The notes: generated by a model from the sequence alone, not told the origin. DNA of 64,000 bases from Acidimicrobiales bacterium (GCA_035630295.1 DASQKY010000030.1:1426-65425); one strand, 5' to 3'. Positions 1 to 19,257 are shown, counted from the stretch's first letter. Numbers and translations: made by a program.

Positions 1-2
1 GC

Positions 3-419
3 AAGCGCGAGCTGGCCGAGGTCACCGCCTTCGAGCTGGTCATCCTCGTGATCCTCGGCGACATCGTCCAGCAGGGCGTCACCCAGGAGGACATGTCGGT
101 CACCGGAGCCGCCCTGGCCGTGTCCACCATGGGCCTGCTGGCAGTGGGCACGTCCGTGGTCGGCCGGCGCTACCGGGCCGTCCGGCCGCTGCTGGAGGGC
201 CGGCCCTCGATCGTGGTGCACGACGGCCGGATCCTCGACGACGTCCTGCGCCGCCAGCGCATCCCCCGGGCCGAGCTCGACGAGGCCGCCCGCAAGCGGG
301 GCCTCCCCGACCTGGCCGACGTGGCCTGGGGCATCGTCGAGACCGACGGCACCTTCTCCTTCGTCGAGCGCAGCGCCGACACCGCCGACCAGCTCGACCC
401 GCAGGAGGGCCAGCACTGA
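3..419 (+). CDS. DUF421/YetF-family membrane protein, 5' end outside window
   Basis: Frame is open from base 3 (KRELAEVTAFELVILVILGDIVQQG). C-terminal part has the YetF-type signature (IVVHDGRIL...LRRQRI...AARKRG...IVETDGTFS). Confidence 0.8.
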   Translation, partial: KRELAEVTAFELVILVILGDIVQQGVTQEDMSVTGAALAVSTMGLLAVGTSVVGRRYRAVRPLLEGRPSIVVHDGRILDDVLRRQRIPRAELDEAARKRGLPDLADVAWGIVETDGTFSFVERSADTADQLDPQEGQH

Positions 420-514
420 CCGGGTCAGGGGCTCTGGCGAGCGATGCGATGCCCCGCCCGGAGGTCGAACACCGGCCCGGCTCGGGCGCGGCGCGGCCCG
501 GGACGGGGGCGGCA

Positions 515-1537
515 TCACGACCGGGGCCGGTCGCCGCGGCGAAGGGAGCGGGGGGAGCTGGCGGCGGTGCGGAGGCGGCCGTCGCGGTAGCGGACGCCGC
601 CCCGGGCCAGGCGGCACCCGACGGCCAGCCACGAGGTCACGGCCCGCTCCCCCACCCACAGCGGGGCCCACAGGGCGCTGGTGGCCGGGTACCAGCCCCG
701 CCCCCCGCCCCGGCGCCGCCCGGCCTCGGCCAGCGCCACCGCCCCGACGGCCAGGGCCAGCACGGCCCGGCGACCCCCAAGCACGGCGACGGGTAGGACG
801 GCCAGCTCGGCGGCCAGGTGGGCCGGCCGGGCCAGCTCGTCGTAGGCCTGCCGCACCCGCTGCTCGGCGAAGCGGCGGGGCTGGGGCGGGTCCCGCGGCA
901 CGACCAGGGCCAGGTCGACGGCGGTGCGGCCGCCCCGGGCCGCCAGGGTGCGCTCCAGCTCGAGGTTCTCGAACAGCACGTCGCCCCGGTAGCCGCCATC
1001 GAGCAGGGCGGCCCGCCGCACGACCAGCGTGCCGGGCCAGTCCCCGCCCACCGCCCGCTGGACCAGGCTCCGGGCCGTGTCCCACCGGGCCACCGGCGTC
1101 AGCGGGCGGTAGCAGTTCTGCGGCCGGAGGGCGGCCAGGCCCTCGGCCTCCATGCGGGCCAGGGCCCGCTCCAGGGTCGGCCGGTCCCAGTGCACGTCGT
1201 CGTCGGCCAGCACCACGACCTCCTGGCCGGCGGCCCGGGCCCCGGCCAGGACGCCACCAACCTTGCCGTTCGGCGTCCGGTCGGCCTCGGCCAGCTGCAC
1301 CCGGCGGACGGTCGGGGGCCACGCCCGGGCGTGGGCCTCCTGCACCTCGGGGGGCGAGCCGTCGGCCACGATCACCTCGGCCACCTCGCCGGCCAGGCGC
1401 CCCAGCCGGTGGCCCAGCTCCGGGACGGGGTGCTCGGTCCGCAGCGGGACGACCACGCTCAGGGCCAGCGGCGCCGCGGCCTCGACGGGCGGGGTGGCGG
1501 GCAGAGCGGCCGGGTCCAGCGGGAGCACCAGGGTCAC
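515..1537 (-). CDS. Glycosyltransferase family 2 protein, probably leaderless
   Basis: SVVVP N-terminal strand, VIVADGS, NGKVGG, LADDDV (DxD motif), hydrophobic C-terminus. GTG start lies about 8 nt below a GGGCAG -10-like box. Confidence 0.8.
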   Translation of the reverse strand: MTLVLPLDPAALPATPPVEAAAPLALSVVVPLRTEHPVPELGHRLGRLAGEVAEVIVADGSPPEVQEAHARAWPPTVRRVQLAEADRTPNGKVGGVLAGARAAGQEVVVLADDDVHWDRPTLERALARMEAEGLAALRPQNCYRPLTPVARWDTARSLVQRAVGGDWPGTLVVRRAALLDGGYRGDVLFENLELERTLAARGGRTAVDLALVVPRDPPQPRRFAEQRVRQAYDELARPAHLAAELAVLPVAVLGGRRAVLALAVGAVALAEAGRRRGGGRGWYPATSALWAPLWVGERAVTSWLAVGCRLARGGVRYRDGRLRTAASSPRSLRRGDRPRS

Positions 1538-1545
1538 CCCCGTCG

Positions 1546-1571
1546 CTGCCCCGGCCGGCGGTCGCTCACAC
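1546..1571 (-). promoter_or_regulatory. Putative SigB/SigF-type promoter of GT2 gene (GTGTG-N15-GGGCAG)
   Basis: -10 box identical to the other island promoters; -35 is degenerate. Confidence 0.45.
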
Positions 1572-1585
1572 AGGCGCGGATCTTC

Positions 1586-1610
1586 GGTTCACCGCCGCCG
1601 GCCCGGGCAG
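1586..1610 (+). promoter_or_regulatory. Putative SigB/SigF-type promoter of ferritin-like pair (GGTTC-N14-GGGCAG)
   Basis: Motif about 35 nt upstream of ATG 1645; AGGAGG RBS lies between them. Confidence 0.55.
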
Positions 1611-1644: not shown

Positions 1645-2868
1645 ATGGGCTTCAACCCGCTCGAGCACGAGGGCATCCCGGTCGACCAGCAGTTCCGCAG
1701 CTGGAAGGAGCTGAACGTCGACCCGCTCCCGGCTCGGCCCGACGACCCCTACACGATGACCCGGGTCATCCTCATGAACGGGATCGAGGTCGAGGCGGCG
1801 ATGTTCTCCCACCAGTTCGCCCGCCACACCGACAACCCCGAGATCAAGCGGTCCCTGGCCGTGAGTCGGCGGATCGAGCAGCAACAGCAGAAGGCGGTGA
1901 ACTGGCTGCTGCCGGGCGAGAACTCGGTCCTGGAGACCACCATCGGCTACGAGCAGGTGGCCGTGGACCTGACCGCCTGGCTGGCCCGCAACGAGCCCGA
2001 CCCCCACCTCAAGCAGGCCCTCGACTTCGCCCTGCTGGAGGACTTCGACCACCTGTACCGCTACAGCAACCTCTACGAGATGATCCAGAGCGGGCGGGCC
2101 GCCGAGCTGACCAAGGGCCTGACCGAGATCACCCCGGGCCGCCCCACCTTCGCCCACCACCGCCATCCCGTGGACGAGCTGCGCCGCCACTACGCCACCC
2201 AGACGGTGAACCCGCTCTCCCGCCTCCACGTCATGACCATCGTCGCCGCCGAGCAGCAGACGATGAACTACTACATGAACACCGGGCCCGACTTCATCGA
2301 GCCCATCGCCCGCAGCCTCTACCTGGAGATCGCCCAGGTCGAGGAGCAGCACGTCTCGCACTACGAGTCGCTGCTCGACCCGCTGGACTCGTGGCTGGCC
2401 AACCTCCTCTACCACGAGGCCACCGAGGTCTACCTGTACTGGTCCATGTTCCAGCAGGAGTCCGATCCGCGGGTGAAGCAGCTGTGGGAGCTGCACCTGA
2501 ACTTCGAGATCGGCCACCTCCAGGAGGCGGCCCGGATGCTGCGGCGCTTCGAGGGCCGGGAGCCCGAGGAGTTGCTGCCGCCCGAGCTGCCCGGCATCCC
2601 GCTCACGTTCGAGACCAACAAGGACTACGTCCGCTCGGTGCTGGCCGCCCAGCTCGACCTGCGGACCGACGAGGAGGACTACGTCCCGGTCGACGACCTC
2701 CCCGCCGACCACCGCTTCTTCGCCTTCCAGGACAAGGCCAACGGCGACGGCGTGCCCAGCGAGGACGTCATCACCCAGAACGTGGAGGCCAACGGCCGCG
2801 ACTACCGGGACGAGACCGAGGGACCGAACCCCATCGTCGACCTGCGCCAGCCCGCCGGCCAGGCCTGA
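1645..2868 (+). CDS. Tandem two-domain ferritin-like (di-metal carboxylate) protein
   Basis: AGGAGG RBS and strong GC3 bias. Two sets of helix-bundle ligand motifs: GIEVEA/EQQQ/YEQV/EDFDH and AEQQ/EEQH/HEATE/EIGH. Confidence 0.7.
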   Translation: MGFNPLEHEGIPVDQQFRSWKELNVDPLPARPDDPYTMTRVILMNGIEVEAAMFSHQFARHTDNPEIKRSLAVSRRIEQQQQKAVNWLLPGENSVLETTIGYEQVAVDLTAWLARNEPDPHLKQALDFALLEDFDHLYRYSNLYEMIQSGRAAELTKGLTEITPGRPTFAHHRHPVDELRRHYATQTVNPLSRLHVMTIVAAEQQTMNYYMNTGPDFIEPIARSLYLEIAQVEEQHVSHYESLLDPLDSWLANLLYHEATEVYLYWSMFQQESDPRVKQLWELHLNFEIGHLQEAARMLRRFEGREPEELLPPELPGIPLTFETNKDYVRSVLAAQLDLRTDEEDYVPVDDLPADHRFFAFQDKANGDGVPSEDVITQNVEANGRDYRDETEGPNPIVDLRQPAGQA

Positions 2869-2882
2869 GAGGAGCACACGAC

Positions 2883-3593
2883 ATGCCGACCAACGCCGCC
2901 TACCACCTCGGGGCCACGTCGAAGCCCATGCCCATGGTGTATGTCGACCCCGAGCGGGCTGTCACCGACGAGCAGCTGGCCGCCGTGGCCGAGGGCACCG
3001 GCCTCAACGGGGCCTTCATCGCCGACGTGCTCTCCGACGCCCTCATGCACGAGCGCTGCGGGTTCCACCTGTACCGCTCGGTGGCGGGGCGCACCAACAA
3101 CCCGATCCTGAAGCGCCGCTACCAGGAGCTCGGCGACGAGACCCTCACCCACGTCACCGTCCTGGAGGAGCTCATCGCCGCCGTGGGCGGCGACCCCGGC
3201 TACGTGAGCCCCGCGGCCCGGGGCACCGAGAAGCTGGACATGGGCGCCCTGGAGGGCTCGTTCATGCTGTCCGGCTCGGTGGACCTGATGACCCAGGAGC
3301 TGATGATGCTCAACGCCGTGGTGCTGGCCGAGGCCATCGACCACGCCAACTGGGAGACCATGGCCGCCCTGGGCGCGGCCTGCCCGGACGGACCGGTGAA
3401 GGACGCCATGGTCCGGGCCGTGGAGCAGGTCCTGCCCCAGGAGGAGGAGCACGTCACCTGGGCCCGCGACATGCGCCAGCGGATGATCCTGCTCCAGGCC
3501 CAGAGCAAGGCCATGACCCGGGTGGGGGCCACCATGGAGACGATGGTGGCCAGGATCAGTTCCATGTTCGACGACGCGCCGGTACCCGGCTGA
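2883..3593 (+). CDS. Ferritin-like domain protein (YciF/rubrerythrin-like)
   Basis: GAGGAG RBS then ATG 2883, inside ORF 1152..3593. Motifs HERCG, DETLTH, LAEAIDH, QEEEH. Confidence 0.75.
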   Translation: MPTNAAYHLGATSKPMPMVYVDPERAVTDEQLAAVAEGTGLNGAFIADVLSDALMHERCGFHLYRSVAGRTNNPILKRRYQELGDETLTHVTVLEELIAAVGGDPGYVSPAARGTEKLDMGALEGSFMLSGSVDLMTQELMMLNAVVLAEAIDHANWETMAALGAACPDGPVKDAMVRAVEQVLPQEEEHVTWARDMRQRMILLQAQSKAMTRVGATMETMVARISSMFDDAPVPG

Positions 3594-3622: not shown

Positions 3623-5248
3623 CTACAGGTCGGGCAGGCGCTGCGGCAGGCCGACCAGGGGCCGGAGCGGGTCCCCGGTGGTGGCCAGGCGATCGAGCAC
3701 GGTGCGCACCGTCCACCGGTCGGGGGCGAGGTCGGGGTCGTCCAGCTCCTCCCAGGCGATGGGCACCGAGACCGGCGCGCCCGGGGCGGGGCGGGTGGTG
3801 AACGGCGCCACCAGCGTCTTGTTGATGGCGTTCTGGGTGTAGTCGAGGCGGGCCAGCCCGCCCCGGTCGCGCTTGGTCCAGGCCCAGCTCACCATCTCGG
3901 GCACCACCTTCCCCACCGCCCGCGAGATGGTCTCCACCCACCCCCGGGTGTCGTCGAAGGACGGCCCGGGCGCCACCGGGATCCAGATCTGGATGCCCCG
4001 CTTGCCGGTGACCTTGGCCCCGGCCTGCACGCCGACGCGGTCGAGGGCCACCTTGTGCAGGCGGGCCAGGACGATCACGTCGTCGAAGGTGCTCTTGGGC
4101 CCGGGGTCGAGGTCGATCAGCGCCCAGGTGGGCTGGCGCCAGGCCGAGGCCGGCGACGTCCAGGGGCTGAGCTCGAGGGCCGCGTAGTTGGCCAGCCAGG
4201 CCAGGGCGGGCGGGCTGTCGGCCACGATGTAGGTCTGGGTATCGCCCGGATCCGCGTCCGGGTAGGTCCACCGGGTGATCCACGACGGCGCGTGCGACGG
4301 GGCTTCCTTGTGCCAGAAGCCCGGGCGTTCGACCCCGTCGGGGAAGCGGAGGGTGTTCACGGGCCGGTCGTAGAGGTACGGCAGCAGGGCCGGGGCCACG
4401 CGGGCGTGGTAGCGGATCACGTCGCGCTTGGTCACCGCCTCGCCGCCCTCCCGCCCCGGGAACAGCACCTTGTCCAGGTTGGTGAGCTTGAGGGTCCGGC
4501 CCTGCAGCTCCCACTCGCCCTTGGCCCCCAGCGCGTCGAGGGCGGCCAGCTCGTCGGGGGTGGGCGGGTCCCACGTGGGGATCTCGGGCCGGGCCCCGTC
4601 CGCCATCGCCTCGTCGCCGGGCCCGGCCCCCCCGGTGACCAGGCCCTCGGTCGAGGACCAGGTGGCGTCGCCGGCGGCCCGCACCTCGTCGTTGGTGCGG
4701 CCGGTCTTGACCGAGGTGGGGTGGTCCTCGGCGTCCCAGCCGGCCACGGCGTGGTCGTCGTGCTTGTGGAGGAGCAGCCAGTCGTCGCCCCCGCCCTTGC
4801 GCACGAAGACGAAGCGCCCGGCCAACCGCTCCCCGGCCAGGTCGACGTGCAGGTCGCCACCCTCGACCGCGGCCAGCGGGTCGTCACCCTTCGCCAGCGA
4901 CCACGTGCCCCAGTCCCAGACGATGACGTCGCCCCCGCCGTACTCGCCGCGGGGGATGGTGCCCTCGAAGTCGAAGTAGTCGAGTGGGTGGTCCTCGACG
5001 TGCACGGCCAACCGGCGGGCGTCGGGGTCCAGGGTGGGACCCTTGGGGACGGCCCAGCTGACCAGGACCCCGCCCATCTCCAGCCGGACGTCGTAGTGCA
5101 GGCGCCGGGCTCGGTGGCGCTGGACGACGAAGCGGTGGCCGTCCCCGGCCGGCGGCGGGCCGGCGCCCGCCGGCTCCGCCGTGACCGAGAAGTCCCGCTT
5201 GTCCCGGTAGCGCCGGAGCCGGTCCTCGTCCGGGGGGGTCATGCCCAC
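3623..5248 (-). CDS. LigD-type 3'-phosphoesterase + primase/polymerase fusion, no ligase domain
   Basis: N-terminal YRDKRDF..TAEP, FVVQRH.ARRLHYD.RLE, SWAVPKGP, VEDHP (PE domain). C-terminal LTNLDKVLFP, DLDP, TGKRGIQ, DYTQN, APFTTR (POL domain). Start is 5248 or 5242. Confidence 0.85.
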   Translation of the reverse strand: MGMTPPDEDRLRRYRDKRDFSVTAEPAGAGPPPAGDGHRFVVQRHRARRLHYDVRLEMGGVLVSWAVPKGPTLDPDARRLAVHVEDHPLDYFDFEGTIPRGEYGGGDVIVWDWGTWSLAKGDDPLAAVEGGDLHVDLAGERLAGRFVFVRKGGGDDWLLLHKHDDHAVAGWDAEDHPTSVKTGRTNDEVRAAGDATWSSTEGLVTGGAGPGDEAMADGARPEIPTWDPPTPDELAALDALGAKGEWELQGRTLKLTNLDKVLFPGREGGEAVTKRDVIRYHARVAPALLPYLYDRPVNTLRFPDGVERPGFWHKEAPSHAPSWITRWTYPDADPGDTQTYIVADSPPALAWLANYAALELSPWTSPASAWRQPTWALIDLDPGPKSTFDDVIVLARLHKVALDRVGVQAGAKVTGKRGIQIWIPVAPGPSFDDTRGWVETISRAVGKVVPEMVSWAWTKRDRGGLARLDYTQNAINKTLVAPFTTRPAPGAPVSVPIAWEELDDPDLAPDRWTVRTVLDRLATTGDPLRPLVGLPQRLPDL

Positions 5249-5280
5249 AGGTTGCCCGGCGGGCCGCCCCCCCGGGGTGA

Positions 5281-5901
5281 TCAGGAGCCGGTGACCTGGT
5301 CCTTGGCCCCCTGGGCCCGCTCGGTGACCTGCTGCTGGGCCTCCTGGGCCCGCTCGGTGACCTGCTGCTGGGCCTCCTGGGCCTGGTCGCGCACCTCGGA
5401 CATGGCCTCGGTGGCGGCCTCGCGCGCCGCGCCGGCCACCTCCTGCCCCATGGCGGTGGCCTGTTCCTGGAGGGGATCCAGGACCTTGCCGGCCACCTCG
5501 ACCTCCTCCCGAGTGGGCGGGGCCATCGACCCGACCAGGACGCCGAGGCCGAAGGCCACGGCTCCCGCGGCCAGGGGGTTGCCCTCGGTGCCCTGCCGGA
5601 TGCGGTCGGGCGCCTGGGCGACCTGGTCGCCGAGCGACGAGGCCGCCTCGGACACCGCCGAAGCCGCGCCGGACACCGTGGAGGTGGCACCCGAGACGCC
5701 CGAGCTGGCGGCGCCCACCGCCTGGCGTGGGGGCCCCATGACCTGGTGGCGGACACGGGTGGAGACTCGACGCACCTTGTCCATGCGGCGACCCACCACC
5801 CGCCCGGGACTGACCCGGTCGCCGATGGCGTCGACCGTGCCCGTCATGCGGGCCCGGGTCTGCTCGATGTCGTGCCTCAACTCCGTCGTTCGCTCAGCCA
5901 C
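5281..5901 (-). CDS. DUF3618 domain protein with ElaB/YqjD-like membrane segment and 11-mer repeats
   Basis: GTG 5901. LRHDIEQTRARMTGTVDAIGDRVSP (DUF3618) and NPLAAGAVAFGLGVLVG. Start overlaps the upstream gene's end. Confidence 0.8.
   Translation of the reverse strand: MAERTTELRHDIEQTRARMTGTVDAIGDRVSPGRVVGRRMDKVRRVSTRVRHQVMGPPRQAVGAASSGVSGATSTVSGAASAVSEAASSLGDQVAQAPDRIRQGTEGNPLAAGAVAFGLGVLVGSMAPPTREEVEVAGKVLDPLQEQATAMGQEVAGAAREAATEAMSEVRDQAQEAQQQVTERAQEAQQQVTERAQGAKDQVTGS
5311..5383. repeat. Perfect 33-bp tandem repeat (about 2.2 copies) encoding QEAQQQVTERA
   Basis: ctgggcccgctcggtgacctgctgctgggcctc at 5311-5343 and 5344-5376, plus a partial copy to 5383. Confidence 0.95.
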
Positions 5902-6275
5902 TGCGCGTCCTCCTTGAGGGTCTGGATGGTCTGCTCCGGCGCCGGGTCCAGCGCCTTCGCCTCGGCCCGTCCCCGCTGGGCGAGGACGGCGGCCGCCGCG
6001 CCGAGCACGGCCGTGACGATCAGGAAGGCCAGCCACGTGGGCATGACCTCGTCCAGGGCGAAGCCCAGGGTCAGCACCAGGCCGATGCCGGCCAGCAGGG
6101 CGACGACGGCCGCGGCCCCGAAGGCCGCTCCCGCCCGCCCGGCCTTGCGGCCCTCGATCTTGAGCTCCTCCTTGGCCAGGTCGACCTCCTGGCGGAAGAG
6201 CGTGGACAGCTCCTGGCTCAGCTCGCCGAGCAGCTCGGGGAGCGAGCGTTCGGGGCGCAGCGGCTCGTCGCTCAT
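5877..6275 (-). CDS. Actinobacterial phage-holin-like (Phage_holin_3_6/YqjE-like) membrane protein
   Basis: SLPELLGELSQELSTLFRQEVDLAKEELK, two TM helices, PEQTIQTLKEDAQWL tail. ATG overlaps the upstream TGA. Confidence 0.8.
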   Translation of the reverse strand: MSDEPLRPERSLPELLGELSQELSTLFRQEVDLAKEELKIEGRKAGRAGAAFGAAAVVALLAGIGLVLTLGFALDEVMPTWLAFLIVTAVLGAAAAVLAQRGRAEAKALDPAPEQTIQTLKEDAQWLSERRS

Positions 6276-6919
6276 GCGCCACCCACCCATCCGGCGGTGG
6301 AGCCGCCGGGATCGGTGCCGGGCATGGCCGGGGGCGGCGGCGGCGACGGGACCGGCGGAGGCAGCGGCGCGGCGGGCGCCGGCATGCCGGCCGCCGGGGT
6401 GGGGGTGACAGCACCGTTGCCGTTGCCGTCGCCCTCGTCGGATCGGGCCTCTCGGCCGGCCCGGGCTAGCCGGCCCACCAGCACGCCGGCGGCGGCGGCC
6501 CCGGCCAGGAAGACCACCGGCCGGCGGCGGGCCATGTCACCGACCTCCTGCACGACGCCCTGGACGCCCATCTCCTCGGCCCGGTCGGCCATCCGGCCCA
6601 GGTGCTCGCTGGCCTGCCGGGCCAGGTCTCGGGTCCGGCCGGCATCGTCGGGCCGGCCGTCGCACAGGGCCTCCAGCTCGTTGGCCGTGCCCCGGGCCGC
6701 ACCGGCCAGGTCGCGCAGGCGCTGCTCGAGCTGGTCGCGCACCTCGCCGGTGGCGGAGTCGAGGACGCCGCGGGCCTGCTCCACGGCTTGGCCGCCCACG
6801 GAGGCGGCCTGCTCGGCGGCGGTGCCCATCACCTCCCGGGCCTGCTCGGCGGCGGTGGAGGCCACCTGCCGGCCCTCGTCGGCGGCGGTGCGCATCGTGT
6901 CGGTCGTCGTGTCGGTCAT
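6272..6919 (-). CDS. ElaB/DUF883-like stress protein with 11-mer repeats
   Basis: GAGGAG RBS, ATG 6919. C-terminal ARRRPVVFLAGAAAAGVLVGRL anchor. Confidence 0.7.
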   Translation of the reverse strand: MTDTTTDTMRTAADEGRQVASTAAEQAREVMGTAAEQAASVGGQAVEQARGVLDSATGEVRDQLEQRLRDLAGAARGTANELEALCDGRPDDAGRTRDLARQASEHLGRMADRAEEMGVQGVVQEVGDMARRRPVVFLAGAAAAGVLVGRLARAGREARSDEGDGNGNGAVTPTPAAGMPAPAAPLPPPVPSPPPPPAMPGTDPGGSTAGWVGGA

Positions 6920-6970
6920 CGGGGCTCCTCGTCGGATGGCTGACGTGGTCGCTGCGGTCGTGGGGCCCGA

Positions 6971-6997
6971 CTGCCCGCGGCCCCAGGCGGTGAAACG
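6971..6997 (-). promoter_or_regulatory. Putative SigB/SigF-type promoter (CGTTT-N16-GGGCAG)
   Basis: About 50 nt upstream of ATG 6919; heads the 6919-3623 minus-strand unit. Confidence 0.6.
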
Positions 6998-7390
6998 TGC
7001 GCCGCCGAGCACGATGCGACGTCAGCGGAGCGGTTGGACCCGCCGATCGCGCTGCTTCAGCAACAAGTGGACCGATCACTAACCGCAAACATCCTTACGC
7101 CTCTTGACCAACCACGAGCCGTGGGACTTGACGCACTAGATGTTGCCGTCTTCACCACATCTCAACATTTTCCCCCTTCGCGCACGGGTCGCAAGGGCGG
7201 TTGTGGTTGCTTCGCCCCCAACGACTTCTCGCCGGACGCCCCACATCCGTTGCGGCCAGAACCTGCGAGCACCGACGAGATCTTTGGCGGCGACACCGAG
7301 ACACTTGCGTATCGAGTCACCACTCAAACGTCGGAGAAACGACAACACAACAACGTCATCTGCAACATCATCGAAGTGGAGGGACCAAAG

Positions 7391-10915: not shown

Positions 10916-10942
10916 CTGCCCGCCCGGCGCAGGAGTGAAACC
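10916..10942 (-). promoter_or_regulatory. Putative SigB/SigF-type promoter (GGTTT-N16-GGGCAG)
   Basis: About 30 nt upstream of GTG 10887. Confidence 0.65.
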
Positions 10943-11537: not shown

Positions 11538-12722
11538 TCAGGGCTGGAAGACGACCTTCACGACCCCGTCCTCCTTGGCCTGGAACCGGGCGTAGGCGTC
11601 CGGCGCCTCGTCCAGGCCCAGGTGGTGGGTGGCGAAGCCGTCGACCCCGAGCGGGTCGTCGTCGCCTTCCAGGAGCGGCAGGATGTCGTCGACCCAGCGG
11701 CGGACGTTGGCCTGGCCCATCCGCAGCTGCACCTGCTTGTCGAACATGGTCAGCATGGGCAGCGGGTCGGCCATGCCGCCGTACACCCCGGTCAGGGAGA
11801 TGGTGCCGCCCCGCCGCACCGCGTCGATGGCGGTGTGGAGGGCGGCCAGCCGATCCACCCCGGCCGTGGTCATGAGCCGCTCGGCCAGGGCGTCGGGCAG
11901 GAGGGACGTGAGCTTGTGGGCCGCGTGAGCGCCCGGGGAGCCGTGCGCCTCCATCCCCACCGCGTCGATGACGGCGTCGGCACCCCGGCCCCCGGTCAGC
12001 TCTCGGATGGCCTCGCCGATGTCGTCGTGGTCCTCGAGGCGCAGGGCGGTGACGCCCCGATCCGCCGCCCGGGCCACCCGGTCCCCCTCGACGTCGACGC
12101 CGATGACCTGCTCGATGCCGAGGTGGCGGGCCACCCGCGCCGCCATGTCGCCGATGGGGCCCAGGCCCAGCACGACCAGGCTGTCACCCGGGGCCACCCC
12201 GGCGTAGGCCACGGCCTGCCAGGCCGTGGGCAGCACGTCCGAGAGGTACAGGTAGCGGTCGTCCGGGGGCCCGTGAGGCACCTTGACCGGGCCGTACTGG
12301 GCCTGCGGCACCCGGAGGTACTCGGCCTGGGCTCCGGGGACCTGGCCGTAGAGCTTGGTGTAGCCGAACAGGGCGGCGCCCATCCCGTGCTCGCGGACCT
12401 GGGTGGTCTCGCACTGGGTCTGGAGGTCCTGGGTGCACATGGCGCAGGTGCCGCAGGCGATCTGGAAGGGGATCACCACCCGGTCGCCGGGGGCCAGGTG
12501 GGTCACCTCCGGCCCCACCGCCTCCACGATGCCCATGGGCTCGTGGCCCAGCACGTCGCCCTCGGTCATGAAGGGGGCCATGACCTCGTAGAGGTGCAGG
12601 TCCGACCCGCACAGCCCGCTCGAGGTGATGCGCACGACGGCGTCGGTGGGCTCCTCGATGGTCGGGTCGGGCACCTCCTCGACCCGTACGTCCTTCGGGC
12701 CCTGCCAGGTCACTGCTCTCAT
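11538..12722 (-). CDS. Zinc-dependent alcohol dehydrogenase (glutathione-independent formaldehyde dehydrogenase-like)
   Basis: MRAVTWQG, CGSDLH, GHEPMG, CGTC.MC...C, GQAEYLRVP, LSDVLPT, GLGPIG, DAVIDAVG. GGAGGAG RBS. Confidence 0.92.
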   Translation of the reverse strand: MRAVTWQGPKDVRVEEVPDPTIEEPTDAVVRITSSGLCGSDLHLYEVMAPFMTEGDVLGHEPMGIVEAVGPEVTHLAPGDRVVIPFQIACGTCAMCTQDLQTQCETTQVREHGMGAALFGYTKLYGQVPGAQAEYLRVPQAQYGPVKVPHGPPDDRYLYLSDVLPTAWQAVAYAGVAPGDSLVVLGLGPIGDMAARVARHLGIEQVIGVDVEGDRVARAADRGVTALRLEDHDDIGEAIRELTGGRGADAVIDAVGMEAHGSPGAHAAHKLTSLLPDALAERLMTTAGVDRLAALHTAIDAVRRGGTISLTGVYGGMADPLPMLTMFDKQVQLRMGQANVRRWVDDILPLLEGDDDPLGVDGFATHHLGLDEAPDAYARFQAKEDGVVKVVFQP

Positions 12723-12778: not shown

Positions 12779-12804
12779 CTGCCCGCGCTCCCCGGCGGCG
12801 AAAC
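12779..12804 (-). promoter_or_regulatory. Putative SigB/SigF-type promoter (GGTTT-N15-GGGCAG)
   Basis: About 55 nt upstream of the ADH start. Confidence 0.65.
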
Positions 12805-12838: not shown

Positions 12839-13033
12839 TCACCCGCTGGGGGCCGCCCCCTCCATGGGGTCGTCGCCCGCCGGCGGGAGGCCCGGCTCGT
12901 CGCCGTCGCCGTCGGTGTCGCCGGACTCCGGCTCGGTCTCGGCGTCGGCCCCGTCGGCCAGGAGCCCATCGCCCTCGGCCGGACCCTGGTCGCGGGTGTC
13001 GTCGCCGCGGGACGGCTGGCCGTGGGGATCCAT
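12839..13033 (-). CDS. Small acidic, probably disordered protein (64 aa)
   Basis: GGAG RBS, 10 nt after the upstream stop. D/E/G/P-rich with no hydrophobic core. Confidence 0.5.
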   Translation of the reverse strand: MDPHGQPSRGDDTRDQGPAEGDGLLADGADAETEPESGDTDGDGDEPGLPPAGDDPMEGAAPSG

Positions 13034-13042: not shown

Positions 13043-13690
13043 CTATCGGGACCGACGCCGGGGCTCGACGTCGCGTTCGCGGGCGAAGTTGCGGCCCAGC
13101 TCCTCGGCGATGCCGCCCTCGGAGCTGGCCTCCTCGGTGATCACCGGCCCGATGGGCTCGCCGTCGGCGCCCAGGCGATCGAGCCGGAGCGGTTCGGCCT
13201 CGACCATGACCGCCTCCACCTCCGGCGCCCACCGAGACACCCGCACGACCTGGCCCCGCTGGGCGGCCGAGGGCACGTCCTGGTTCTTCACGGCCATGGC
13301 CGGCAGCACGATGACGGCGATGGTGCCGCCCACCGCGCCCCCGCACAGGGCGCAGATGAGCAGCCGGAGCCAGAGGGGGATGTCGTCGGGCAACAGGACA
13401 GCCACGGGCAGGGCCACGACCACGCCGATGGCGGTCAGGATCGGGCCGAGCAGGCTGGTGGCCTTGGTGGCCTCCTTCGAGTACAGGATGCCGGCCTGCG
13501 GCATCACCATGCTCTCGGTGGCCTCCTCCCGCATCTCGGCCCGCAGCGAGGTGCGCTCGTCCTGCCCGGCGTCGGTGCGGATCTCCTGGTCGCGCACCCC
13601 GACGTGGGCCAGCCGGCGGCGGAGGTCCGGCACCCGGTCGGGGGCGTACACACCGAGCAGGGCGTGGGCCGGCGTCTGCTGATCACTCAT
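13043..13690 (-). CDS. Two-TM stress membrane protein (YflT-like N-terminus)
   Basis: ATG 13690. LLGVYA...LRRRLAHVGV...I, two TM helices with a GGAVGG glycine zipper. Confidence 0.55.
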   Translation of the reverse strand: MSDQQTPAHALLGVYAPDRVPDLRRRLAHVGVRDQEIRTDAGQDERTSLRAEMREEATESMVMPQAGILYSKEATKATSLLGPILTAIGVVVALPVAVLLPDDIPLWLRLLICALCGGAVGGTIAVIVLPAMAVKNQDVPSAAQRGQVVRVSRWAPEVEAVMVEAEPLRLDRLGADGEPIGPVITEEASSEGGIAEELGRNFARERDVEPRRRSR

Positions 13691-13699: not shown

Positions 13700-13724
13700 C
13701 TCCCCCGGCCCCCGGGGGGCAACC
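13700..13724 (-). promoter_or_regulatory. Putative SigB/SigF-type promoter (GGTTG-N14-GGGGAG)
   Basis: Ends 10 nt above ATG 13690, implying a near-leaderless mRNA. Confidence 0.45.
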
Positions 13725-13763: not shown

Positions 13764-13790
13764 GGTTTCACCCGCTCGCCCGCCGGGCAG
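13764..13790 (+). promoter_or_regulatory. Putative SigB/SigF-type promoter (GGTTT-N16-GGGCAG)
   Basis: About 30 nt upstream of ATG 13820. Confidence 0.65.
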
Positions 13791-14098: not shown

Positions 14099-14124
14099 GG
14101 TTTGGCATCGGCGGTCGGGGGGAG
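14099..14124 (+). promoter_or_regulatory. Putative SigB/SigF-type promoter (GGTTT-N15-GGGGAG)
   Basis: About 35 nt upstream of GTG 14159. Confidence 0.6.
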
Positions 14125-14158: not shown

Positions 14159-15682
14159 GTGCAGGAGACCGTGCCAGGCCCCCCCGGCGGCCCGTGGACC
14201 CAGCCGGCGGCCCGCTACCCGGCCCTGTCGGGCCCGGCCCGCGCCGACGTCGTGGTGGTCGGGGGTGGCATCGCCGGCCTGACCACCGCCGTGCTGCTGG
14301 CCCGGGCCGGGGCCCGTGTGCGGGTCCTGGAAGCCGGCGCCGTCGGGCAGGGGACCACCGGGGGCAGCACGGCCAAGGTGACGGCCCTGCAGGCCCGCCG
14401 CCTGTCCCATCTGCGCGAGGTGCACGGCGACGCCGTGCTGGCCCCCTACGTGGAGGCCCAGCTGGCCGGCCAGCGCTGGATCGAGGCCCGGGCCGGGGAA
14501 CGGGACGTGGCCTGCGGCCTGGAGCGCCTGCCGGCCTCCACCTACGTCACCGACCCCGAGCGGGTGGGCTCCATCGACGACGAGGCCGAGGCGGCCCGTC
14601 TGGCCGGCCTGCCCGTCGAGGTGGTCGACGACGACCCCGACCTGCCCTTCGCCACCGCCCGGGCCGTGCGCCTGGCCGACCAGCTCCAGGTCGACCCCCG
14701 GGCCTGGGTCGCCGACCTGGCCGCCGAGGTGGCGGCCCAGCCCGGGTGCGCCGTGCACGAGGGCAGCCGCGTGGTCGACGTGGCCGCCGGCCACCGCTCG
14801 GTGGCCACCGAGGACGGGCGGGTCGAGGCCGGCCACGTGGTCCTGGCCACGCTCCTGCCCATCAGCGACCGGGGGCTGCTCTTCGCCCGCACCGAGCCGA
14901 CCATGTCCTACGGCCTGGCCCTGGAGGTGGCCGGCTCACGGCCGCCGGTCATGGCCTACGGGGCCGACCGCTCCACCCGCTCGCTGCGCCCGGCCCGGAT
15001 CGGCGAGGGCCCGGTGCTGCTGGTCGGGGGTGAGGGCCATCCGGTGGGCCGGGGCCGGGGGACCGAGCAGCAGAGCCGGCTGCTGGAGTGGGCCCGGTCC
15101 CACTTCGAGGTCACCGCCGTGCGCCACCGGTGGGCCGCCCACGACCTGCAGAGCACCGACCTGCTCCCCTTCGCAGGCCGGGCCGACCGGCTGCCCGGGA
15201 GCCCCTGGGTGGCCTCCGGCTTCGGCAAGTGGGGCCTCACCAACGGCACGGCGGCGGCCATGACCATCGCCGGCCGCATCACCGAGCCCTCCGGCGACGG
15301 GCGGGCCTGGGACGCGCTCTTCGACCCCCGGCGCTCCCACCCCCTGGCCGGCTACCGCTCGGCCGCCCGGCACAACGCCGGGGTCGCCGCGCAGATGGCC
15401 CGGGGGTGGGCCTCGGCCGGCTCGGCCACCACCGCCCGGGGGCCGGAGGTCACCCGCCAGGGCCTGGTCCCGACGGCCGCCGGACCGGGGGGCTGCCGCC
15501 TGTCGCTGGCCTGCACCCACCAGCGGGGCATCGTCCGCTGGAACGAGGCCGAGCGCACCTGGGACTGCCCGCTTCACGGCTCGCGCTTCGCCGAGGACGG
15601 CTCGGTGGTGGCCGCCCCCGCCCGCCGCCCCCTCCGCCGCGTCGAAGGTCCCTCCGACGGGGACGACGACGGAGCTGGTTGA
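14159..15682 (+). CDS. FAD-dependent oxidoreductase with C-terminal Rieske domain (YhfW/PuuB-like)
   Basis: AGGAGG RBS. VVVVGGGIAGLTTA, GTTGGSTAK, SGFGKWGLTNGT, CTH...WDCPLHGSRF. Confidence 0.9.
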   Translation: MQETVPGPPGGPWTQPAARYPALSGPARADVVVVGGGIAGLTTAVLLARAGARVRVLEAGAVGQGTTGGSTAKVTALQARRLSHLREVHGDAVLAPYVEAQLAGQRWIEARAGERDVACGLERLPASTYVTDPERVGSIDDEAEAARLAGLPVEVVDDDPDLPFATARAVRLADQLQVDPRAWVADLAAEVAAQPGCAVHEGSRVVDVAAGHRSVATEDGRVEAGHVVLATLLPISDRGLLFARTEPTMSYGLALEVAGSRPPVMAYGADRSTRSLRPARIGEGPVLLVGGEGHPVGRGRGTEQQSRLLEWARSHFEVTAVRHRWAAHDLQSTDLLPFAGRADRLPGSPWVASGFGKWGLTNGTAAAMTIAGRITEPSGDGRAWDALFDPRRSHPLAGYRSAARHNAGVAAQMARGWASAGSATTARGPEVTRQGLVPTAAGPGGCRLSLACTHQRGIVRWNEAERTWDCPLHGSRFAEDGSVVAAPARRPLRRVEGPSDGDDDGAG

Positions 15683-15702
15683 GGGTCGGCGCGCCGGGGG
15701 AG
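15677..15702 (+). promoter_or_regulatory. Putative SigB/SigF-type promoter (GGTTG-N15-GGGGAG)
   Basis: Overlaps the upstream stop; about 30 nt above ATG 15734. Confidence 0.5.
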
Positions 15703-15733: not shown

Positions 15734-15964
15734 ATGGACGGCGGCGAGGACAGCGGAGAGATCAAGGAGCCCGACAACAGCACCGTCGACGACTGGCTGG
15801 GCCAGGACGTGGCCCGCGACACGGAGGTGGCCGAGCGGGTCGCCCGCGAGAGCGACACCGAGGAGGAGGCCGAGGAGCGCTTCGAACGGGAGGCCTCGGG
15901 CGAGGAGCACCACCGCGCCGCCTACCCCCGGCCCGACGACGCCCCCGACGGCGGCCCGGCCTGA
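15734..15964 (+). CDS. Small highly acidic protein (76 aa)
   Basis: GAGAGGAG RBS and GC3 bias. NSTVDDWLGQDVARD...EEEAEERFERE. Confidence 0.65.
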   Translation: MDGGEDSGEIKEPDNSTVDDWLGQDVARDTEVAERVARESDTEEEAEERFEREASGEEHHRAAYPRPDDAPDGGPA

Positions 15965-16123
15965 CCACGCCGCCAGCTCCCCGGCCGCGAGGGCACGAAC
16001 GGGGGTCATGCGGGCTCAGCCCTTTGCACGGGACCGGCGGTGTGCTTGTGTGGGAGACGGCGTTCAGCACCGAGGGCCTTCCCATCGATCCGGCCATCCC
16101 CGAGGCCGGTGGAAGCAGGAAGC

Positions 16124-17065
16124 ATGTCCACGCTGGCCCCCTCGACGTCAGGGACCCCTGACGCCCCTTCGCCCCCCCCTCCCGCGGACGAGGCGGACCT
16201 CCGCGCCCTCTGCGCCCGCCGCCGAGACGAGCTTCGCCGCCGCCTCGACACCCTGGCCGATCGCCTCGACGTCGGCCGGGCCTGGCGGACGGTCCCCCTC
16301 GGGGACTCGGCCCGCGACCCGCGCCGCACGCCGGGGGTCGACATCGGCACCTGGATCCTCCACGTTCGCTACCAGCGCACGCGCGACGAGGCCGTGCTGG
16401 CCGCCCTGGTGGAGGAGTACACGCCCTACGCCACCGCCATCGCCCGCCGCCTGCACCGCGGCGGGGAGCCGAACGAGGACATCCACCAGGTGGCCATGGA
16501 GGCTCTGGTGACGTCGCTTTCGCGCTTCGACGTGGCCCGCCGGCGGCCTTTCCCGGCCTACGCCACCCCGACCATCACCGGGGCGGTCAAGCGCCACTAC
16601 CGGGACCGGGGCTGGAGCATCCGCACCTCTCGGGTGGTGCACGACACCGCCGGCCCCCTCCGGGAGGCCGAGGACCGCCTGGGCCGCACCCTGGGCCGAC
16701 CCCCCACGCCGTCCGAGCTGGCCGCCGAGATGGGCATCGACGAGGCCACGGTGACCGAGACCCAGCTCGCCACCCGGGCCCGGGCCGTCACCTCGCTCGA
16801 CCGCCCGGCCGTGGAGGGGGGCCAGCCGCTGGCCGAGTCCATCGGGGCCGCCGACGACGACCTCCTGCGGGCCGAGAACCGGGTGGCGCTGGTCGACGCC
16901 CTCTCCGACCTGGACGAACGGGACCGGACCGTGCTCACCCTGTACTACTTCGAGGAGATGTCGCAGCGGCAGATCGCCGAGCGCTACGGCGTCAGCCAGA
17001 TGCAGGTGTCACGCTGGCTGTCGAGCATCCTCGCCCGGCTGCGACAGCGCCTGGTGGCGGCGTGA
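16124..17065 (+). CDS. SigB/SigF-family RNA polymerase sigma factor (copy 1)
   Basis: EDIHQVAMEALV..L.RFD, FPAYATPTITGAVKRHYRD.GWSIR, PTPSELAAEMG, SLD, LSDLDERDR..L.LYYFEEMSQRQIA...GVSQMQVSR. Confidence 0.92.
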   Translation: MSTLAPSTSGTPDAPSPPPPADEADLRALCARRRDELRRRLDTLADRLDVGRAWRTVPLGDSARDPRRTPGVDIGTWILHVRYQRTRDEAVLAALVEEYTPYATAIARRLHRGGEPNEDIHQVAMEALVTSLSRFDVARRRPFPAYATPTITGAVKRHYRDRGWSIRTSRVVHDTAGPLREAEDRLGRTLGRPPTPSELAAEMGIDEATVTETQLATRARAVTSLDRPAVEGGQPLAESIGAADDDLLRAENRVALVDALSDLDERDRTVLTLYYFEEMSQRQIAERYGVSQMQVSRWLSSILARLRQRLVAA

Positions 17066-17593
17066 GCGAGCGGGGGGCCGCCGGCCGGCCGAGCGGACCA
17101 GGACCACGGCGTCGACCCGCTCCGAGCGGGCGCCCCGGGCGGGGTGGGCGGTGAAGTCCTCGGCGCCCTCCACCTCCACCGGCGGGGGGGCCCCGGTGAG
17201 GTCGACCTCGTCGCCGGCCAGGAGCCGACGGGCGGCGGCGGCCAGAGCGGCGGCGGGCAGGTCCCGACCCCGGAGGGACGAGAGCGAGCGCCCCACGGCC
17301 TGGGCCGCCGGGGTGCCGTAGGCCTCCTCGGCCCCGTGGCTCCAAGCCTGGACCCGCAGGTCGGGGCCGACCACCAGGAGGACGGTGTCGCACCAGCCCA
17401 GCACCTGGTCGAGGAGGTCGTGCAGGGCGTCGACCTGGGCCACGCGCTGGCGGACCTCGTCGTTGAGCCGAGCCGCCTCCGCCGCGGCCTCGTCCAGCAC
17501 CCGCTCGGCCCGCTGCATCTCCTCGACGAGGGCCTGCAGTTCGGCGGCGGCGGGGTCGAGCTCGTCGGCCCCTTCGGTGGCATCCGGTCCCAT
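17009..17593 (-). CDS. Coiled-coil + PAS domain protein with no output domain
   Basis: ELQALVEEMQRAE...LNDEVRQR coil, then VLLVVGPDLRVQAWSHGAEEAYG..AAQAVGRSL (PAS; resembles the CheR-associated PAS region). Overlaps the sigma 3' end by 57 bp. Confidence 0.65.
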   Translation of the reverse strand: MGPDATEGADELDPAAAELQALVEEMQRAERVLDEAAAEAARLNDEVRQRVAQVDALHDLLDQVLGWCDTVLLVVGPDLRVQAWSHGAEEAYGTPAAQAVGRSLSSLRGRDLPAAALAAAARRLLAGDEVDLTGAPPPVEVEGAEDFTAHPARGARSERVDAVVLVRSAGRRPPARSRRHQALSQPGEDARQPA

Positions 17594-17603
17594 GGGCCGG
17601 CCC

Positions 17604-17628
17604 TCGCCCGGCGGGGCGCGCCGAAACC
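17604..17628 (-). promoter_or_regulatory. Putative SigB/SigF-type promoter (GGTTT-N14-GGGCGA)
   Basis: Ends 11 nt above ATG 17593. Confidence 0.5.
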
Positions 17629-17747
17629 GCGACCACCCGGCGGAGGGCTGCGGGGCGTGGGTCCTTGACCCGCCGACCCATCGTCCGTACCGTCCGCGGG
17701 GCGAGTTCAACCGGCAGCTCCCGCCCCCCGCCTCCCCCCCGAGCGCC

Positions 17748-18122
17748 ATGAGCCCCCCACCGCCCCGCCTCGTCGTGTCCGTCGACCGGGCCGTCGTGCC
17801 CGTGCTGCACCTCGACGGCATCCTCGACCAGCGCACCACCCCCCTCCTCCGGGCCGAGGCCGCCCGGGTCCTGGTCGACCAGCCCCAGGACGTCGTGCTG
17901 GAGTGCCGCGGCCTCCTCGACGTGGACGCGGCCGGGCTCCGGACCCTCCTCGACATCCGTCGCCACCTCCCCCACCCCGGGGAGCTGCTGGTGGTCGGGG
18001 CGTCGGACACGCTGCGCGAGCTGCTCCGGGTCACCGCCCTGGACCAGAGCGTCCACGTCATCGCCCCCGGCCACGCCGAGGCCGCTGGCGACACCGCGGG
18101 CGCCGATCCCACTCGGGTCTGA
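17748..18122 (+). CDS. STAS anti-sigma-factor antagonist
   Basis: VLHLDGILD..T.P.LR, VVLEC.GL..VDAAGL..L, LRELLRVTALD. Asp is present but Ala replaces the usual phosphoacceptor Ser (DAAG). Confidence 0.8.
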   Translation: MSPPPPRLVVSVDRAVVPVLHLDGILDQRTTPLLRAEAARVLVDQPQDVVLECRGLLDVDAAGLRTLLDIRRHLPHPGELLVVGASDTLRELLRVTALDQSVHVIAPGHAEAAGDTAGADPTRV

Positions 18123-18390
18123 CCCACCTCCGAGCGCGGTGCGTGGCTGTCGGGGGCCGTGGTAAGCGAACCTCGGGGAGGCGTCCGGTTCAAACCGAGA
18201 GCCGGGCGCCTCCCTCGGGGTGGCCCGGGGCAGGTCGCAGTGGTCCGGGTGTGACGTCTCCCGGAACTCGGGTGTGAGTCGCGACCGGACGGGGAACGGT
18301 TGGGGCCGCTGATGCCCTTCAAACCGCGAGCGGGCCAGCAGAGCGCGTCACCCCACGTCGACCCTGCCCTGTGCTTGCGAAGGAGTGCCC

Positions 18391-19257
18391 ATGACTCCCA
18401 CGTCCCACCTCGACCTCACCTCCGCCGCCGAGGACGCCGTCGTCGAGCGCACCATCCCCCGGGCTCTGTCCACCGAGTCCGCCAGTCCCCCTCCGGCGTG
18501 CGACGCCGACACGTGGCTGCTCCACGTCCGCTTCCAGCGCACCGGCTCCCCCGAGGCCCTGGAGGCGCTGGTGGAGGAGTACCGGGCCATGGCCCTCTCC
18601 CTGGCCCGCCGCATGCACCGCGGCGCCGAGCCCCTCGACGACCTCCAGCAGGTGGCGCTGGAGGCGCTGGTGCGCTGCCTGCGGGGCTTCGACTGCAACC
18701 AGAGCACCCCCTTCGTCGGCTACGCCACCCCCGCCATCCTGGGCGCCCTCAAGCGCCACTACCGCGACCACGGGTGGAGCCTGCGGGTCCCCCGCCGAGC
18801 CCACGAGCTGGCCGCCCCGGCCCGGGACGCCGACGAGCGCCTGACCGCCCAGCTGGGCCGGCGCCCGACCACGGCCGAGACGGCCGCCGCCCTGGGCGTG
18901 GACGCCCGGGAGCTGGAGGCGGCCGAGGCCGCTCGCCGAGCCCGGGGCCTGGTGCGCCTGGACGCCCCGGTCCACGTCGAGGACGGTGAGGGCCCCGGCC
19001 GGGACGTCCCGGTGCTGGAGGCCGGCTTCGACGAGGCCGAGAGCCACCTGGCCCTGTCCCGGGCGCTGCAGCACCTCGACGAGCGCGAGCGGACGGTGCT
19101 GGGCCTCTACTTCTTCGAGGACCTCACGCAGTCCGAGATCGCCCAGCGCTTCGGGGTCAGCCAGATGCAGGTGTCGCGCTGGATCCGGTCGTCCCTGGCC
19201 CGGCTGCGCAGCCGGATGGAGGCCGAGGACGGGACCCCCCTGGCCTGCGCCAGCTGA
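18391..19257 (+). CDS. SigB/SigF-family RNA polymerase sigma factor (copy 2)
   Basis: AAGGAG RBS. DDLQQVALEALV...RGFD, FVGYATPAILGALKRHYRD.GWSLR, YFFEDLTQSEIA..FGVSQMQVSR. Confidence 0.92.
   Translation: MTPTSHLDLTSAAEDAVVERTIPRALSTESASPPPACDADTWLLHVRFQRTGSPEALEALVEEYRAMALSLARRMHRGAEPLDDLQQVALEALVRCLRGFDCNQSTPFVGYATPAILGALKRHYRDHGWSLRVPRRAHELAAPARDADERLTAQLGRRPTTAETAAALGVDARELEAAEAARRARGLVRLDAPVHVEDGEGPGRDVPVLEAGFDEAESHLALSRALQHLDERERTVLGLYFFEDLTQSEIAQRFGVSQMQVSRWIRSSLARLRSRMEAEDGTPLACAS

Follow-up and report, generated by a model that had tools for sequence, protein, structure and literature searches.

In mycobacteria, the sigma factor SigF reads promoters of the form GTTT-N14-19-GGGTA, and GGGCA is a frequent functional variant of the -10 element, found among other places at the sigF operon and dps (PMC4694148). 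Many SigF promoters of Mycobacterium smegmatis lie 8-11 nucleotides (nt) before a start codon, and next to sigF is MSMEG_1766-1804, a densely packed series of SigF-dependent genes (PMC4694148). About a quarter of mycobacterial transcripts are leaderless, and SigF motifs mark hypoxia-induced transcription starts (PMC6448022). Here we describe an arrangement of the same kind in a 64-kb stretch of DNA from an uncultured soil actinobacterium of the family Iamiaceae (DASQKY010000030.1; hereafter the window, to which all coordinates refer). The first 19.3 kb of the window hold two sigma factor genes and about a dozen genes of a stress-protection type, most of which have the same two-box promoter motif; eleven sites of it had been reported.

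Two further systems are close enough to serve as a guide. The nine SigB homologues of Streptomyces coelicolor (SigB, F, G, H, I, K, L, M and N) use promoters such as GTTTCG-N14-GGGCAT and GTTTGC-N14-GGGCAA with extensive cross-recognition, and have roles in differentiation and in the response to osmotic and general stress (PMC8346170). The Bacillus subtilis SigB regulon has the promoter GTTTaa-N12-14-GGGwAw, and its autoregulated sigB operon encodes RsbV, RsbW, SigB and RsbX. Our literature search found no published sigma-promoter study of Acidimicrobiia, the class to which the first-pass annotation of the window had assigned this DNA; the nearest genomes, metagenome-assembled genomes (MAGs) of Iamia and other Iamiaceae at about 60% protein identity, bear that assignment out.

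The Iamiaceae cluster is of the same kind as the mycobacterial arrangement, with SigB/F-class promoters and stress-type genes beside a sigma gene, and the differences are modest. It shares with the SigF regulons of M. smegmatis and M. tuberculosis the -35 GTTT, the spacing, a -10 of GGGNA, leaderless-type spacing and the stress genes next to the sigma. The mycobacterial targets that overlap its gene content are Zn-dependent dehydrogenases, FAD oxidoreductases, a family-2 glycosyltransferase, small conserved hypotheticals and a STAS antagonist (PMC4694148, PMC6448022). Unlike the mycobacterial system, it has the -10 box GGG(C/G)AG instead of GGGTAT and two tandem paralogous sigmas with no adjoining RsbW/UsfX gene; its sigma genes lack a canonical GTTT...GGG site and carry a conserved leader block of their own, and the lineage, Acidimicrobiia, is a different one. 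The S. coelicolor set resembles it in its group-3 paralogues and overlapping GTTT/GNNT-N-GGG(T/C)A promoters, but the A at -10 position 5, nearly invariant in Streptomyces, is G at several cluster sites (GGGCGA), and for Iamiaceae there is no known context of sporulation or differentiation. The sigma family, the promoter, the STAS antagonist and the general-stress gene content are likewise shared with B. subtilis, whereas of the B. subtilis operon the cluster has only the STAS and sigma genes, with no canonical site before the latter. The mycobacterial and streptomycete picture is thus extended and not changed. We regard the locus as probably a chromosomal general-stress gene cluster with SigB/SigF-class promoters, of which one or both of the neighbouring sigma factors are the most likely readers.

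Promoter-like sites and their conservation

The sites are given below in order of position, each with its strand, its two boxes, its distance to the start codon and our grading (strong, probable with orthologue backing, or weak).

1546-1571, minus strand: candidate GTGTGAG-N13-GGGCAG, 9 nt before GTG 1537 (family-2 glycosyltransferase), leaderless-type spacing; weak
1586-1610, plus strand: GGTTCAC-N-GGGCAG, 35 nt before ATG 1645, with an AGGAGG ribosome-binding site; strong
6971-6997, minus strand: CGTTTCAC-N-GGGCAG, 52 nt before ATG 6919; strong
9410-9435, plus strand: candidate GTTT-N15-GGGCGA, upstream of a DUF72 gene, -10 position 5 is G; weak
10916-10942, minus strand: GGTTTCAC-N-GGGCAG, 29 nt before GTG 10887, upstream of genes for a 126-aa and a 76-aa protein (aa, amino acids); strong
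12779-12804, minus strand: GGTTTCGC-N-GGGCAG, 56-57 nt before ATG 12722 (Zn alcohol dehydrogenase); strong
13700-13724, minus strand: candidate GGTTG-N-GGGGAG, 10 nt before ATG 13690; weak
13764-13790, plus strand: GGTTTCAC-N-GGGCAG, 30 nt before ATG 13820; strong
14099-14124, plus strand: GGTTTGGC-N-GGGGGAG, 35 nt before GTG 14159 (FAD oxidoreductase with a Rieske domain, FAD-Rieske); probable
15677-15702, plus strand: candidate GGTTGAGG-N-GGGGAG, overlapping the stop codon of the preceding gene, 32 nt before ATG 15734; weak
17604-17628, minus strand: GGTTTCGG-N-GGGCGA, 11 nt before ATG 17593 (PAS gene), leaderless spacing; probable

All eleven sequences are present with the coordinates and orientations first reported, and the motif agrees with the experimentally defined actinobacterial SigF/SigB-homologue class, as had been proposed (PMC4694148, PMC8346170). 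Against the class consensus (GTTT or GNNT, 14-17 nt from GTTT to GGG, and GGG with A at position 5), no mismatch occurs at 6971, 10916, 12779, 13764 and 14099; one deviation is found at 1586, 15677 and 13700, and position 5 is G at 9410 and 17604. The weak sites each have a recognizable defect: GTTG at 15677, GTTG together with a -10 box overlapping a GGAGG that may instead be a ribosome-binding site at 13700, a -35 of GTGTGA at 1546, and GGGCG at 9410. The -35 box at 1546 is not GTT-like. M. smegmatis has a GTGT-N15-GGGTT promoter 11 nt before a family-2 glycosyltransferase gene (PMC4694148). The reported distance of 8-55 nt to a start codon holds at ten of the eleven sites and not at 9410, where the supposed GTG at 9436 directly abuts the -10 box and so could not be used by a transcript from that site; the Pfam match of DUF72 begins just past 9535, the likely start, about 100 nt downstream.

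An unbiased two-box enumeration over 44 oriented upstream regions ranked GTTT(C)...GGGC first (7 regions, p ~9e-9), and the strict form GTTTC-N13-17-GGGCAG has four matches where shuffled sequence gives 0.05. Because a test with the cluster's own motif would be circular, we took the SigF pattern published for M. smegmatis, GTTT-N15-16-GGG[TC]A, as an independent query. Its four matches in the window all lie within the first 19 kb, oriented toward genes and 29-57 nt before start codons. All four fall in the target space, that is, non-coding sequence 5-120 nt upstream of a same-strand start codon, which makes up 3.15% of position-by-strand space (P ~1e-6), as do all seven matches of GTTT-N14-17-GGGN[AG] (P ~3e-11). 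The latter pattern occurs in 7/17 upstream regions of the cluster and in 0/29 elsewhere in the window (Fisher 3.6e-4; dinucleotide-shuffle mean 0.39). The loosest pattern, by contrast, is not enriched over shuffles (11 matches vs 9.1 expected) and is non-random in its placement alone, and a relaxed form is found in 5/29 non-cluster regions, equal to the shuffle rate, so the weakest sites cannot be judged one by one. Enrichment within the window thus holds for the strict and GTTT-anchored forms and not for the loosest one. The motif is real, and its observation is confirmed for the core sites.

Across 29 aligned Iamiaceae sites the motif reads (G)GTTT(C/G), a spacer of 14-16 nt without conserved sequence, and GGG(C/G)A(G). 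These 29 depart from the canonical -10 forms GGGTAT and GGGWAW: position 4 is C in 16, A in 11, G in one and T in one, and position 6 is mostly G. Most of the position-4 A calls sit in G-runs, where realignment by one base gives G. Promoters of orthologues in Acidimicrobiia of lower guanine-plus-cytosine (GC) content keep GGGTAT or GGGTAG, and the shifted GGG(C/G)AG is found in genomes of 73-76% GC, showing a conserved sigma specificity that drifts with genome GC from GGGTAT to GGGCAG. The first-pass annotation had taken GGGCAG for a variant -10 form, which the alignment extends to the whole family; as a novel specificity it does not stand, GGGCA variants being already documented (PMC4694148, PMC8346170). 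The resulting model, GTTT(C/G)-N14-16-GGG(C/G)AG, should be usable for Acidimicrobiia, which are abundant in soil and sea water and have few cultured members.

Distances between the -10 pentamer and the start codon fall into two sharply separate groups, 9-13 nt at 12 sites and 29-100 nt at 17, with none between, the pattern expected of a genuine promoter class with both leaderless and leadered targets. The shorter spacing is consistent, if indirectly, with start positions some 6-9 nt past the -10 box, and in terms of spacing it agrees with the earlier suggestion that several of the mRNAs are leaderless. Two of the weak sites, 1546 at 9 nt and 13700 at 10 nt, also gain some support from it.

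For comparison we used loci from relatives, labelled L001, L004, L019, L035, L086-L090 and L092-L095. Synteny with the cluster is partial in L001, L019 and L086. In L001, an Iamia MAG, the shared genes encode DUF3618, Holin-X and LEA-like proteins, the 76-aa protein, FAD-Rieske, a sigma factor and the alcohol dehydrogenase, and 13.8 kb contain seven motif matches, each followed by a ribosome-binding site and start codon or by a start codon 10-11 nt on. In five further Iamiaceae loci, fetched through their sigma homologues, 13/13 matches are non-coding and nine lie 5-120 nt before a called start (P ~8e-11); these figures use the supplied annotation instead of our codon-based caller, which performs poorly on some relatives.

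The motif is retained upstream of orthologues despite differing spacer sequences, in the FAD-Rieske, PAS, LEA/Holin-X/DUF3618, alcohol dehydrogenase and 407-aa protein genes. FAD-Rieske orthologues carry it in L001, in L035 (lower-GC Acidimicrobiia; GTTT-N15-GGGTAT) and in L004 (Thermoleophilaceae; GTTTCAC...GGGGTA). As a negative control, 45 FAD-Rieske homologues had GTTT...GGGNA only in L004 and L035, with L001 showing a GGGCG variant; the others, about 40, lacked it, among them all of about 30 from Paenibacillus and other phyla. The PAS gene has the motif 10-11 nt before its start codon in the window (17604), L019 and L086. The LEA/Holin-X/DUF3618 operon has it in the window (6971), L001 (1771) and L087 (5574), and in L001 it also precedes the orthologues of the 76-aa gene (at 2214) and of the alcohol dehydrogenase (GTTTCG-N-GGGCAG). 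The 407-aa gene keeps a GGTT-N15-GG(G/A)NAG layout in the window, L019, L086 and L092, and L095 has GTTT-N16-GGGTAG. In L019, the slot equivalent to 15677, after the FAD-Rieske gene, holds GTGTGA-N13-GGGTA.

Sigma factors and their leader element

The right end of the cluster has the following features.

16124-17065, plus strand: sigma factor 1, group 3, SigB/F/G-like, 313 aa
17009-17593, minus strand: coiled-coil and PAS protein, convergent with sigma factor 1, whose gene its 3' end overlaps by 57 nt
17748-18122, plus strand: STAS-domain anti-sigma-factor antagonist (RsbV-like), between both sigma genes
18272-18296, plus strand: possible extra site GTGTGAG-N13-GGGGAA, new to this analysis, about 90 nt before the start of sigma factor 2; speculative
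18391-19257, plus strand: sigma factor 2, group 3, SigB/F/G-like

The two sigma factors are 50% identical, and both have Sigma70_r2, r3 and r4 (Pfam) without region 1, the make-up of group 3. The family model that fits each best is TIGR02980 SigB/F/G (E 6e-59 and 4e-56), ahead of the FliA/WhiG and ECF models, in line with their first description as SigB/F paralogues. Among PDB sequences, 8x6g_H (a sigma factor of 256 aa) and 1l0o_C (the sigma factor of entry 1l0o) match best, and 8jzt_A (a SigF region-4 fragment) matches as well, with FliA and SigA far lower; the nearest solved relatives are therefore SigB/SigF-type sigmas, and the recognition segments in regions 2.4 and 4.2 are well conserved. 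A scan of metagenome contigs with sigma factor 1 returned only distant sigmas at 25-29% identity.

The sigma genes have an upstream block of their own, ...GTGTGGTT-N15-GACGTTCAAACCACGAGGGTCAC..., which lies 40-70 nt before the start codon in seven of eight fetched relatives (not L087). In the window, sigma factor 1 has a divergent version and sigma factor 2 two partial copies. Positions are as follows.

16063-16076: leader block of sigma factor 1, divergent
18188-18201 and 18317-18330: leader block of sigma factor 2, two partial copies
Relatives: L001 5631-5644; L019 2547-2560; L086 9942-9955; L088 9943-9955; L089 9933-9946; L090 9957-9970

The block can fold into a hairpin of 5-6 base pairs (ACGUUC, loop AAACCAC, GAGGGU) with one or two covarying pairs; the hairpin precedes the sigma genes in all seven relatives that have the block and, in divergent form, both sigma genes of the window. 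The block could be a promoter combined with a 5' leader through which expression of the sigmas is controlled. A scan of 15900-18450 for sigma-70 promoters and terminators with Escherichia coli rules found nothing, and so lends no support to a promoter of housekeeping type upstream of the sigma genes.

The convergent overlap of the sigma factor 1 and PAS genes, 48-57 nt long, is common to the window (17009-17065), L086 (10856-10912) and L019 (3481-3528), the same three loci in which the PAS gene has the motif. Transcription of the PAS gene from its stress promoter would run antisense into the sigma factor 1 gene.

Readers of the motif

In the reading we prefer, at least seven and up to eleven transcription units start at SigB/SigF-class promoters of the form (G)GTTT(C/G)-N14-16-GGG(C/G)AG, to which a group-3 SigB/SigF/SigG sigma, most likely the paralogue encoded at 16124, that at 18391 or both, would direct RNA polymerase. 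Stress or stationary phase would then switch on the ferritin-like proteins, a LigD repair module, a triad of membrane and amphipathic-helix proteins, oxidoreductases and small hydrophilic proteins. Leaderless mRNAs would come from some 40% of the sites, those at 9-13 nt; the other transcripts would have leaders 29 nt long or longer, in most cases including a ribosome-binding site. The sigmas are presumably gated post-translationally, by partner switching through the STAS protein and a presumed anti-sigma factor encoded elsewhere, and the sigma genes would be transcribed from their different, conserved promoter and leader. The motif, where it lies, its conservation and the family of the sigmas are established by the analysis, whereas which sigma reads the motif, the inducing signal and the physiological role we infer; a role in desiccation or dormancy, as first suggested, we likewise infer from gene content alone, namely the small hydrophilic proteins, the ferritin-like proteins and the LigD module. 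What the cluster offers for Iamiaceae is a candidate general-stress regulon, open to scans across MAGs and to tests in cultured Iamia.

Several points weigh against this reading. The clustering of the motif was assessed within the window, 64 kb of a contig of about 446 kb; four of the eleven sites (1546, 9410, 13700 and 15677) are individually not distinguishable from chance; and none of the RNA-seq runs searched contains the window sequence. The TIGR02980 scores of the two sigmas, 199 and 190 bits, are under the curated NCBIfam cut-off of 234. Save for the speculative GTGTGAG-type site before sigma factor 2, no GTTT...GGGCA was found upstream of either sigma gene. Neither an RsbW-type kinase (HATPase_c_2) nor a PP2C phosphatase was found among the window proteins scanned with Pfam (all but about eight called genes), so the cluster is not the self-contained module it had been called. 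In L095, a gene combining HTH and HATPase_c_2 domains and a STAS gene lie close to the operon of the 407-aa protein. Finally, over 100 close sigma homologues exist, and an Iamia genome has several paralogues; since relatives carry so many paralogous sigmas, adjacency is the sole link between these two sigmas and the promoters, and the assignment first made to this pair goes too far.

The last of these points feeds the strongest alternative, in which the promoters are genuinely of SigB/F class and are read by a paralogous sigma encoded elsewhere, the neighbouring sigmas having another specificity or being redundant. In favour of this possibility, the motif surrounds different paralogues in L087-L090, S. 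coelicolor SigB homologues cross-recognise promoters extensively (PMC8346170), and the sigma genes of the window are themselves without the motif. Nonetheless, the window, L001, L019 and L086 all keep sigma, STAS and PAS genes close to genes that bear the motif, and the equivalent dense cluster of M. smegmatis adjoins sigF itself (PMC4694148). We consider a sigma encoded elsewhere unlikely, although it deserves to be taken seriously, and prefer the neighbouring sigmas as readers.

A variant that keeps a SigB/F regulon would have it controlled, with no RsbW beside the sigma, by the PAS protein and/or the leader hairpin instead. The PAS protein could be a new anti-sigma or feedback regulator, acting as a protein or through antisense transcription, and the hairpin could be a post-transcriptional switch, possibly tied to RNA-binding GAF-ANTAR proteins whose genes bear the motif. 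We find control of this kind doubtful. Less probable still is that the two boxes are a transcription-factor binding site or another non-promoter element: the -35 box does extend to GGTTTCAC at five sites, beyond the usual core, but the strict gene-ward orientation, the non-conserved spacer of fixed length, the sharp 9-13 nt start spacing at 12 sites and the match to an experimentally established sigma consensus all speak for promoters (PMC4694148, PMC8346170). A compositional artefact, in which G-rich ribosome-binding regions meet an occasional GTT at 75% GC, would suit the unenriched loosest and relaxed forms and the GGAGG at 13700, and might account for 1546, 9410, 13700 or 15677 individually, but it is refuted for the core sites by strict and GTTT-anchored forms that are far above shuffles, lie only upstream of genes and are conserved before orthologues elsewhere, and as a general explanation it is scarcely credible.

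Gene content and neighbouring observations

Gene calling relied on codon log-odds learned from the window itself, lists of open reading frames being useless at about 75% GC (70-79% per 2-kb bin throughout). Starts were checked against gene calls made independently on a Logan contig of 6.5 kb that carries this sequence, which agree at ATG 13690, 17748 (STAS) and ATG 18391 (sigma factor 2). A search of sequencing runs found the window sequence in a single soil-metagenome DNA run. Apart from the sigma, STAS and PAS genes, the first 19.3 kb contain the following.

Within 1-19.3 kb: truncated YetF/DUF421 protein
515-1537, minus strand: family-2 glycosyltransferase, GTG start at 1537
1645-2868, plus strand: 407-aa protein, first gene of a two-gene operon (1645-3593)
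2883-3593, plus strand: DUF892-like protein, second gene of that operon
3623-5248, minus strand: LigD phosphoesterase and polymerase without the ligase domain (Pfam)
5281-5880, minus strand: DUF3618 protein (Pfam)
5877-6275, minus strand: actinobacterial Holin-X (Pfam)
6272-6919, minus strand: amphipathic-helix (LEA or apolipoprotein-like) protein
8206-9348, plus strand: methyltransferase-like membrane protein, listed with a DUF3050 gene
9535-10254, plus strand: DUF72 protein
10277-10507, minus strand: 76-aa protein, function not known
10507-10887, minus strand: 126-aa protein, function not known
11538-12722, minus strand: Zn alcohol dehydrogenase
12839-13033, minus strand: 64-aa acidic protein, following the next gene
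13043-13690, minus strand: 215-aa membrane protein
From ATG 13820, plus strand: 84-aa protein
14159-15682, plus strand: FAD-Rieske oxidoreductase, GTG start
15734-15964, plus strand: 76-aa acidic, very hydrophilic protein, ATG start

The four genes at 3623-6919 (minus strand), with intergene gaps of -4, -4 and 32 nt, form a probable operon. Two of the small proteins are strongly acidic and hydrophilic, with grand averages of hydropathy of -1.3 and -1.5. The 126-aa protein was tested as a hidden STAS domain, with no evidence for one. The cluster may continue to the left of window position 1.

The 407-aa protein is highly conserved. It has more than 8000 database homologues (the top 120 at 65-85% identity), no Pfam family and no PDB sequence match, and its gene is always trailed by the DUF892-like gene (about 235 aa), the pair being kept in L086 and L092-L095. 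The DUF892 match of the partner is just below threshold. The predicted model of the 407-aa protein is all-helical (predicted local distance difference test, pLDDT, 71); in a Foldseek search with it, NrdF/R2 structures rank first and none is significant (E at least 0.07, template-modelling (TM) score <0.2). Its invariant pairs D133-x-x-H136 and E233-x-x-H236 fit a di-metal site, and this residue pattern alone suggests that it is possibly a di-metal carboxylate (ferritin-like) protein. The label "ferritin-like proteins" is accordingly suggestive only. Conserved proteins without assigned function, this very widespread helical protein above all, are flagged by the motif as members of a stress regulon.

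The description of the cluster as an island is not borne out in the sense of acquired DNA: GC at third codon positions (GC3) is 0.89 or higher in all genes of 1-19 kb and does not differ from the rest of the window, a scan of the cluster for integrase, transposase and tRNA genes found none, and synteny is partly kept across Iamiaceae. The other 45 kb of the window are mostly housekeeping, with LarB/LarC-like genes, clpP, rpe, RNase PH, murI, cysK, smpB, tmRNA, carD, ftsEX and prfB. The tmRNA gene (39275-39656, plus strand) lies about 1.8 kb 3' of smpB (36986-37474, plus strand) with an acyl-CoA synthetase-like gene between, and there is one tRNA gene (28474-28547, minus strand); all are ordinary and outside the cluster.

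An Rfam scan of 1-20 kb gave no match, with E values as high as 0.1 allowed. The intergenic gap at 6920-7390 (471 nt, 50-65% GC), which precedes the DUF3050 gene, has neither an Rfam match nor the stress motif, and an AT-richer stretch of 363 nt preceding that gene folds no better than shuffles (z = 0.05).

A few motif-like matches lie in other places. Two of GGTTC-N-GGGCA(G) type, at 9122-9147 and 9179-9203 (plus strand), fall inside the gene at 8206-9348, 330-390 nt before DUF72, and may be internal promoters or chance. The sole GTTT-type match outside the cluster, GTTTCC-N-GGGGCG at 62885-62906 (minus strand), has a short N13 spacer 62 nt before ftsE and is probably chance. Besides 1546, the window has two more sites of the GTGTGAG type, at 18272 and 40347, both intergenic and gene-oriented, and their count is not significant. 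The second, GTGTGAG-N13-GGGGTA (40347-40371, minus strand), precedes genes for a 72-aa protein and a MazF/PemK toxin (40071-40289 and 39724-39996), a pair with the lowest GC3 in the window (0.82-0.85).

Genes for GAF-ANTAR proteins, of the RNA-binding antiterminator type, recur beside the sigma or 407-aa loci of relatives (L086 12308-13762, L089 8013-8771, L090 15639-16340, L092 6348-7073 and 8958-9665, L094 8095-8799); the window has none. The one in L086 has the stress motif at 13774, 11 nt before its start.

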